A stretch of 64,000 nucleotides of DNA, taken from Escherichia coli (GTDB lineage Bacteria; Pseudomonadota; Gammaproteobacteria; Enterobacterales; Enterobacteriaceae). Both the position numbers and the translations under genes were made by a program. Shown here piece by piece: positions 37,310-37,346 of this stretch. The notes beneath the pieces were generated by a model. The model did not search any database, had not been told where the DNA came from, and saw only the letters and a list, made by a program, of their open reading frames with translations. The stretch's first letter is position 1. Every line of letters begins with the position of its first letter. The stretch is from assembly GCF_016026235.1 (NCBI RefSeq), contig NZ_CP065613.1. One strand, written 5' to 3'.

Positions 37310-37346
37310 GATTGTAGAGGCGTCATCAGTACATACCTCTACAATC
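37310..37346 (-). terminator. Perfect 11-bp inverted repeat hairpin between yhiL and yhiJ
   Basis: GATTGTAGAGG-cgtcatcagtacata-CCTCTACAATC. Confidence 0.4.

Follow-up and report, generated by a model that had tools for sequence, protein, structure and literature searches.

A stem-loop between the Escherichia coli paralogs yhiL and yhiJ: a possible 3′-end hairpin of yhiL without a U-tract

The window, a 64-kb stretch of E. coli DNA, carries two paralogous DUF4049 genes on its minus strand, yhiL and yhiJ, in the order yhiM (divergent), yhiL-type gene, spacer, yhiJ, yhiY, yhiI and rbbA. Their spacer (37149–37409, 261 nt) contains a perfect inverted repeat, 11 bp long and enclosing a loop of 15 nt. 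The gene calls were confirmed by the RefSeq annotation of the identical strain FDAARGOS_943, whose spacer matches that of the window at 100% identity. The features of the locus, listed in the direction of transcription, are as follows.

37410–39020, minus strand: yhiL-type DUF4049/DUF6860 gene, intact here, with the hairpin in its 3′ untranslated region
37349–37355, minus strand: 5′ side (UUCUUAA) of a lower-helix extension predicted in the fold, with two U·G pairs that exist in the sense RNA only
37336–37346, minus strand: 5′ arm of the hairpin in the yhiL-sense RNA, GAUUGUAGAGG; position 37335 gives a twelfth pair in most strains
37321–37335, minus strand: hairpin loop, 15 nt here and 13 nt in strains that have a plus-strand G, hence C in the RNA, at 37335
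37310–37320, minus strand: 3′ arm of the hairpin in the yhiL-sense RNA, CCUCUACAAUC
37302–37308, minus strand: 3′ side (UUAGGGA) of the lower-helix extension predicted in the fold, overlapping the would-be U-tract
37267–37287, minus strand: invariant block AGAUAAGAAAUUUCAUAUUAU between hairpin and promoter, better conserved than the hairpin
37233–37263, minus strand: likely yhiJ promoter, with a −35 of TTAAGG (TTGAGG in K-12), a 19-nt spacer and a −10 of TATAAT
35526–37148, minus strand: yhiJ (DUF4049), the downstream paralog, whose product is 34% identical to YhiL

The two genes form a 4-kb island (35500–39500) with a G+C content of 34–39%, against 50–60% in the flanks, and the locus decays readily. 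In K-12 yhiL is a frameshifted pseudogene, in STEC367 it has an internal stop, and most of it is deleted in the lineage represented by L007; a 555-aa in-frame yhiL-yhiJ fusion that lacks the spacer occurs in L011 and in about ten complete genomes. Both DUF4049 proteins carry GDxxGDR ... GNHE motifs, and YhiJ shows a sub-threshold match to Pfam Metallophos (E 0.0038; 18.1 bits against a cut-off of 21.5) together with a faint WipA-phosphatase match. Their sequences suggest a divergent calcineurin-like phosphoesterase fold. Past the yhiJ stop codon, at 35420–35450 on the minus strand, lies a 6-bp stem-loop (CTGTTC-N8-GAACAG); since it has no U-tract, yhiJ likewise lacks a canonical terminator.

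The arms of the dyad, at 37310–37320 (GATTGTAGAGG) and 37336–37346 (CCTCTACAATC), are 100% complementary, with 15 nt between them, exactly as claimed in an earlier, sequence-only reading of this DNA. That reading placed the dyad about 65 bp past yhiL and about 160 bp ahead of yhiJ, in close agreement with the measured distances of 63 nt from the yhiL stop codon and 161 nt to the yhiJ ATG. Most E. coli strains, K-12 and EDL933 included, have a stem of 12 bp and a loop of 13 nt. Markov-1 simulations of the 64-kb window yielded 0.35 register hits for perfect inverted repeats with arms of 11 bp or more and a loop of 3–20 nt, and 15 of the 60 simulations contained at least one, so that one such dyad somewhere in 64 kb is possible by chance. 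By the same definition the real window has 19 register hits, which correspond to nine distinct hairpins and greatly exceed the number produced by chance. For the 261-nt spacer alone the chance expectation of a perfect inverted repeat of at least 11 bp is about 0.001, and for a 5-Mb genome a few tens of chance hairpins of this size are expected. We regard the dyad as real, and a random coincidence within the spacer as unlikely. The eight further perfect inverted repeats of at least 11 bp in the window lie at 5674–5710, 9856–9887, 18283–18320, 40472–40507, 46733–46764, 52047–52077, 52506–52532 and 57493–57521; those beginning at 40472 (just after yhiM) and 52506 have A-run/T-run ends and a terminator-like look.

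In the yhiL-sense RNA, a 55-nt segment containing the dyad is predicted to fold at −21.9 kcal/mol, compared with −9.0 ± 2.4 for shuffled sequences (z −5.4), and none of 200 shuffles folded as well. Across three E. coli lineages the corresponding values are −20.1 to −23.8 kcal/mol, with z from −4.8 to −5.9. The antisense strand folds less well, at −15.7, because several pairs are G·U in the sense RNA only. The 37-nt hairpin by itself accounts for −16.4 to −18.3 kcal/mol, and with the lower helix the predicted structure extends to a helix of about 19 bp with a small internal loop. The core stem of 11–12 bp, with 5–6 G-C pairs, is the stable, G+C-rich stem-loop expected of an intrinsic terminator; the loop and the tail are not what such a terminator calls for. 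The loop of 13–15 nt, within which two or three weak inner pairs are predicted and not conserved, exceeds the usual short loop of about 3–8 nt. The tail, UUUAGGGACUUUCUC (also given as UUUAGGGAC), has three U residues right after the stem and then AGGG; the triplet is UUU or UCU depending on the strain, another lineage has UCUAGGGAU, and none of these amounts to a U-tract of 7–8 nt. Scored with a formula after d'Aubenton Carafa 1990, the tail has a T-score of 2.54 and a d-score of −23 to −28, and a simple terminator scan called no canonical terminator at the hairpin. A U-rich stretch precedes the stem, with no A-tract. The long loop and unclear U-tract remarked upon earlier are thus borne out, by 13–15 nt of loop, three polymorphic U residues and an empty terminator scan, and the hairpin is not a canonical intrinsic terminator.

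No open reading frame overlaps the hairpin, and a small-ORF reading was rejected on that ground. Searches with the Rfam 15 covariance models returned only chance-level matches to eukaryotic miRNA and snoRNA families (E 1.8–6.9, far under the gathering scores), and membership of a known RNA family was likewise rejected.

We compared ten diverse E. coli spacers and counted variable columns: none among the 22 of the arms, 4 among the 15 of the loop and 35 among the remaining 224 of the spacer. The arms differ from everything else at a one-sided Fisher p of 0.024, and from the loop at 0.021, in a test on 10 non-independent sequences; we take this as modest evidence of constraint on the arms. K-12, EDL933 and most strains have C as the first loop base; this window has U there, which makes a U·G pair in the yhiL-sense RNA only. 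The arms are intact in the N96/L008 lineage, the most divergent in the collection (YhiJ 86% identical). Base 37308, read as U or C, is polymorphic in that lineage, where the proximal UUU is UCU. Rare variants do affect the arms: in strain wlxctx60 a C-to-U change in the 3′ arm turns a G-C pair into G·U on the sense RNA only, and in strain 53_142304 a change of A7 to T in the 5′ arm breaks a central pair. Two pairs show a one-sided change that preserves a wobble pair in the sense RNA, and four are broken in single strains. Compensatory changes were sought, but no pair was altered on both sides, and the covariation score equalled that of a shuffled control. The predicted 7-bp lower helix is weakly conserved, with pairs broken in single strains, and in strain ZH142 an IS1 element is inserted about 27 nt from the hairpin.

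Of 5426 complete E. coli genomes, 4170 carry the spacer element, in exactly one copy each and always on the chromosome; no plasmid copies were found in these genomes, and the 64-kb window holds no second copy. The remaining genomes (about 23%), for example the B2 strain NRG 857C, lack the whole yhiJ-yhiL island. Looking for the dyad elsewhere in the genome, as had been proposed from the sequence, therefore brought no recurrence. One copy per genome argues against a repeated element or a regulon-wide operator, and an assignment to REP/BIME or any other repeat was rejected on the basis of the single copy in each of the 4170 genomes.

Outside E. coli, homologues of YhiJ were found in E. albertii only; a protein-based scan of species genomes returned no homologues, consistent with this restriction and with the absence of the island from NRG 857C. 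E. albertii has the same gene order, with a spacer of 356 nt. At its syntenic locus (L005, L006, L013), YhiJ is 57% and YhiL 51.5% identical to the E. coli proteins, a divergence that we take to be far above what is usual for these two species and that points to fast evolution or replacement of the island. Homology between the E. coli and E. albertii spacers starts at CTTAATCGAT, just 5′ of the hairpin, and continues to yhiJ. Within the homologous segment of E. albertii the arms are not conserved and no significant fold is predicted (z −0.2 to −1.4). The hairpin region is 60% identical between the species, the coding regions 68–69%; on inspection, 8 of the 11 positions of the E. coli 5′ arm agree with the complement of the 3′ side in E. 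albertii. The blocks that are invariant across both species, AUAAGAAAnUUCAUAUUAUG, TATAAT and the ribosome-binding site, all lie downstream of the hairpin. As judged from this comparison, the hairpin is specific to the E. coli lineage. It is also dispensable, since E. albertii has no significant hairpin, one strain carries a pair-breaking change, the fusions lack the spacer and one lineage has lost most of yhiL. An apparent covariation at the base of the stem across species (T-A, C-G, T·G, G·T) was discarded, as E. albertii has no significant fold there and the L007 ‘spacer’ is the decayed interior of yhiL and no homologue of the arm.

An exact scan for the two arms separated by 8–24 nt, in one genome for each of 100,044 species, found three sites, all in Bacteroidota and all within long perfect intergenic palindromes at gene ends (L020, 4317–4383; L021, 1467–1502; L022, 3534–3613). 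These palindromes look terminator-like and share the 12-mer GATTGTAGAGGC, which is the K-12 form of the arm. Chance matches on the order of ten are expected in a scan of this size, as estimated from the hairpin density of the window, and three are thus unremarkable in number. We judged them to be probable coincidences, given the many perfect hairpins per genome and the unrelated contexts. The twelfth base and the single phylum that these sites have in common are mildly odd; nothing links them to yhiJ or yhiL.

Genomic SELEX (Shimada 2014) located two features in the yhiL-yhiJ spacer, a constitutive RpoD (sigma-70) promoter and a site for H-NS (PMC3946193). The likely yhiJ promoter that we identify there was missed by our promoter scan, which allowed spacers of 16–18 nt, not 19. 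It begins about 46 nt downstream of the hairpin, which therefore belongs to the yhiL 3′ untranslated region and not to the yhiJ leader. Its −10 element TATAAT (37233–37238) is invariant, E. albertii included, and, together with the block AGATAAGAAATTTCATATTAT, shows no change in any E. coli spacer and almost none in E. albertii, where the flanking genes have only about 68% DNA identity. From their conservation, the block at 37267–37287 and TATAAT make a better candidate than the dyad for a conserved yhiJ promoter or operator. The plus strand of this block has a promoter-like TGCACA-18-CATAAT arrangement. Published SOS gene lists include yhiJ and yhiL. Despite this membership the spacer has no CTG-N10-CAG box, and a LexA operator was rejected; the two such boxes in 35300–39400 both fall within the 3′ part of yhiJ. 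SELEX peaks for RpoS, RpoH, FliA and FlhDC near yhiJ were set aside as well, as they map to the yhiL-yhiM spacer or inside yhiL or yhiJ and not to the hairpin. In the SELEX literature that we found, no transcription-factor site is reported at the dyad.

Transcript data come from K-12, in which Adams et al. (2021) mapped a Rho termination region with a best coordinate of 3632784 on the minus strand (PMC7815308). The dyad of MG1655 occupies 3632752–3632788, and the Rho coordinate falls inside it. Upstream and downstream reads were 73/36 without bicyclomycin and 182/249 with it, giving a Rho score of 2.77 (p 5e-6), from 800-nt windows with low counts (PMC7815308). Because of the window size and the low counts, the position of the coordinate within the hairpin may be a coincidence. 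Since K-12 yhiL is frameshifted, the signal could also reflect polarity arising from a C-rich stretch at 37621–37780, with no need for an evolved terminator. The 200 nt downstream of the hairpin show no rut-like bias of C over G (C/G 0.4–1.0 in 80-nt windows), and the nearest C-rich stretch (C/G 1.6–1.9) lies 280–430 nt upstream of the hairpin, within yhiL. Between 3,630,900 and 3,634,199, an interval that takes in nearly all of yhiJ and most of yhiL, the Rho region at the hairpin is the sole transcript feature of Adams et al.; they report no Term-seq 3′ end there, which is uninformative for an island that is barely expressed in the laboratory (PMC7815308). Dar and Sorek (2018) showed that E. 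coli transcripts terminated by Rho finish at stable stem-loops lacking a U-rich tail, which stop PNPase and RNase II (PMC6061677).

Taken together, these observations lead us to a tentative interpretation, to which we assign a probability of roughly 45%: the dyad specifies a hairpin that closes the yhiL transcript at its 3′ end, lacks a U-tract like those described on Rho-terminated transcripts, and stands upstream of a separate yhiJ promoter. The DNA would encode a stem-loop in the yhiL 3′ untranslated region with a core of 11–12 bp and a weaker 7-bp lower helix, which would form about 63 nt past the stop codon when yhiL is transcribed. Because it has no U-tract, the hairpin by itself is probably poor at releasing RNA polymerase. 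Rho would stop polymerases that get past it, within the spacer or after it, and 3′-to-5′ exonucleases would then halt at the hairpin and leave a stable yhiL 3′ end, perhaps with a minor contribution from weak intrinsic termination. With the yhiJ promoter about 46 nt further downstream, yhiL and yhiJ would be separate transcription units. Its formation in living cells, the presence of an RNA 3′ end at its foot and its importance for fitness are inferred. In favour of a 3′-end hairpin are its location, with the yhiL stop codon on one side and the published yhiJ promoter and H-NS site on the other, and the retention of a wobble pair on the sense RNA by both one-sided stem changes. The initial suggestion was of an operator or an RNA processing site separating the paralogs. 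An element acting at the RNA level fits, with the hairpin between the yhiL stop codon and the yhiJ promoter and the Rho region inside it; an operator is unsupported, there being no site reported in the papers searched, no LexA box and no retention of the arms in E. albertii.

Several other accounts of the dyad have to be weighed against a 3′-end hairpin. It may be a neutral, lineage-specific palindrome with no function, which originated within the E. coli lineage, perhaps when an intrastrand template switch turned a quasi-palindrome into a perfect one, and which seems conserved only because the island is young and its diversity low. The 8-of-11 match in E. albertii, the missing fold at the homologous place, a hairpin region no better conserved than the coding regions (60% against 68–69%), the lack of covariation, a constraint test with p of about 0.02 on 10 non-independent sequences, the pair-breaking variant in 53_142304 and the frequent decay of the locus by frameshift, internal stop, fusion, deletion and IS1 insertion all lean this way. 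We regard a functionless palindrome as a serious rival, though somewhat less likely than a 3′-end hairpin; against it, its chance expectation in the spacer is about 0.001, it sits where functional hairpins sit, between a stop codon and the next promoter, and its arms do not vary while its loop does, even in the lineage with YhiJ at 86% identity. The dyad might instead be a weak Rho-independent terminator of yhiL, at which the hairpin and three proximal U residues release a fraction of the polymerases. The strong stem (−16.4 to −18.3 kcal/mol for the 37-nt hairpin), the three U residues directly after it in most strains, the U-rich stretch before it and the discussion by Dar and Sorek of inefficient intrinsic terminators backed up by Rho (PMC6061677) would accommodate this. 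Set against them are the loop of 13–15 nt, the tail UUUAGGGA with its T-score of 2.54 and negative d-score, the scan that calls nothing, the replacement of UUU by UCU in the N96/L008 lineage and the bicyclomycin sensitivity of read-through in K-12, and we think termination by this route unlikely.

A DNA operator, with the palindrome bound by a protein that regulates yhiJ or yhiL, would account for a perfect dyad centred about 100 bp upstream of the predicted yhiJ start site in an H-NS-bound region, with conserved arms and a variable stretch between them. Its 12-bp arms are, however, 25 bp apart from centre to centre, a geometry that no known dimer operator shows; moreover, it occurs once per genome, the SELEX literature that we found has no site there, the spacer has no LexA box, and the arm sequence is lost in E. 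albertii whereas the nearby promoter blocks are kept. These points make an operator very improbable. We give equally little credence to a processing site for an RNase III-type endonuclease in a yhiL-yhiJ read-through transcript. The helix of about 19 bp with its small internal loop would be close to the known length of RNase III substrates, and it lies between two cistrons; the lower helix is poorly conserved, however, and yhiJ has its own promoter. Also very improbable, in our estimation, is the idea that the hairpin is a recent, E. coli-specific regulatory innovation, recognised through its sequence by a protein or nuclease and serving to uncouple the fast-evolving DUF4049 paralogs, in which case the occurrence of GATTGTAGAGGC in Bacteroidota could mean a shared origin or function.

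The dyad is probably an ordinary gene-end stem-loop that had not been annotated, and we see no evidence of novelty. If a 3′-end hairpin is the right interpretation, it would at most mark the 3′ boundary of the yhiL transcript and yhiL and yhiJ as separate units in an accessory island silenced by H-NS and policed by Rho. One more case of a 3′ hairpin without a U-tract at the end of a Rho-dependent gene would then be known, and it could aid the annotation or expression of the uncharacterised DUF4049 genes. For the regulation of yhiJ, the block at 37267–37287 is more promising than the hairpin.

Among known systems, REP/BIME elements resemble the dyad in being imperfect-to-perfect intergenic palindromes at gene ends, with GTAG/CTAC in the arms, and REPs also stabilise upstream mRNA. 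They number in the hundreds, whereas the dyad occurs once per genome; both arms of the dyad carry GTAG within the stem, where a REP has it once, at the foot; and the AT-rich dyad differs from the REP consensus. Intrinsic terminators share with the dyad a strong hairpin past a stop codon with a few U residues after it, and are set apart by its long loop, by a tail of only three U followed by AGGG, which is itself polymorphic, and by its negative discriminant scores. The idea that protective 3′ stem-loops occur on Rho-dependent transcripts reportedly goes back to Peters et al. 2012. In comparison with the stem-loops of Dar and Sorek, the yhiL hairpin has a longer loop than usual (13–15 nt), no mapped steady-state 3′ end at its foot and no downstream bias of C over G, and its K-12 Rho signal may be pseudogene polarity. 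It is like them in being stable, soon after the gene end and without a U-rich tail (PMC6061677), as far as the coarse K-12 data go in the bicyclomycin sensitivity of read-through, and in its association with a lowly expressed, horizontally acquired gene.
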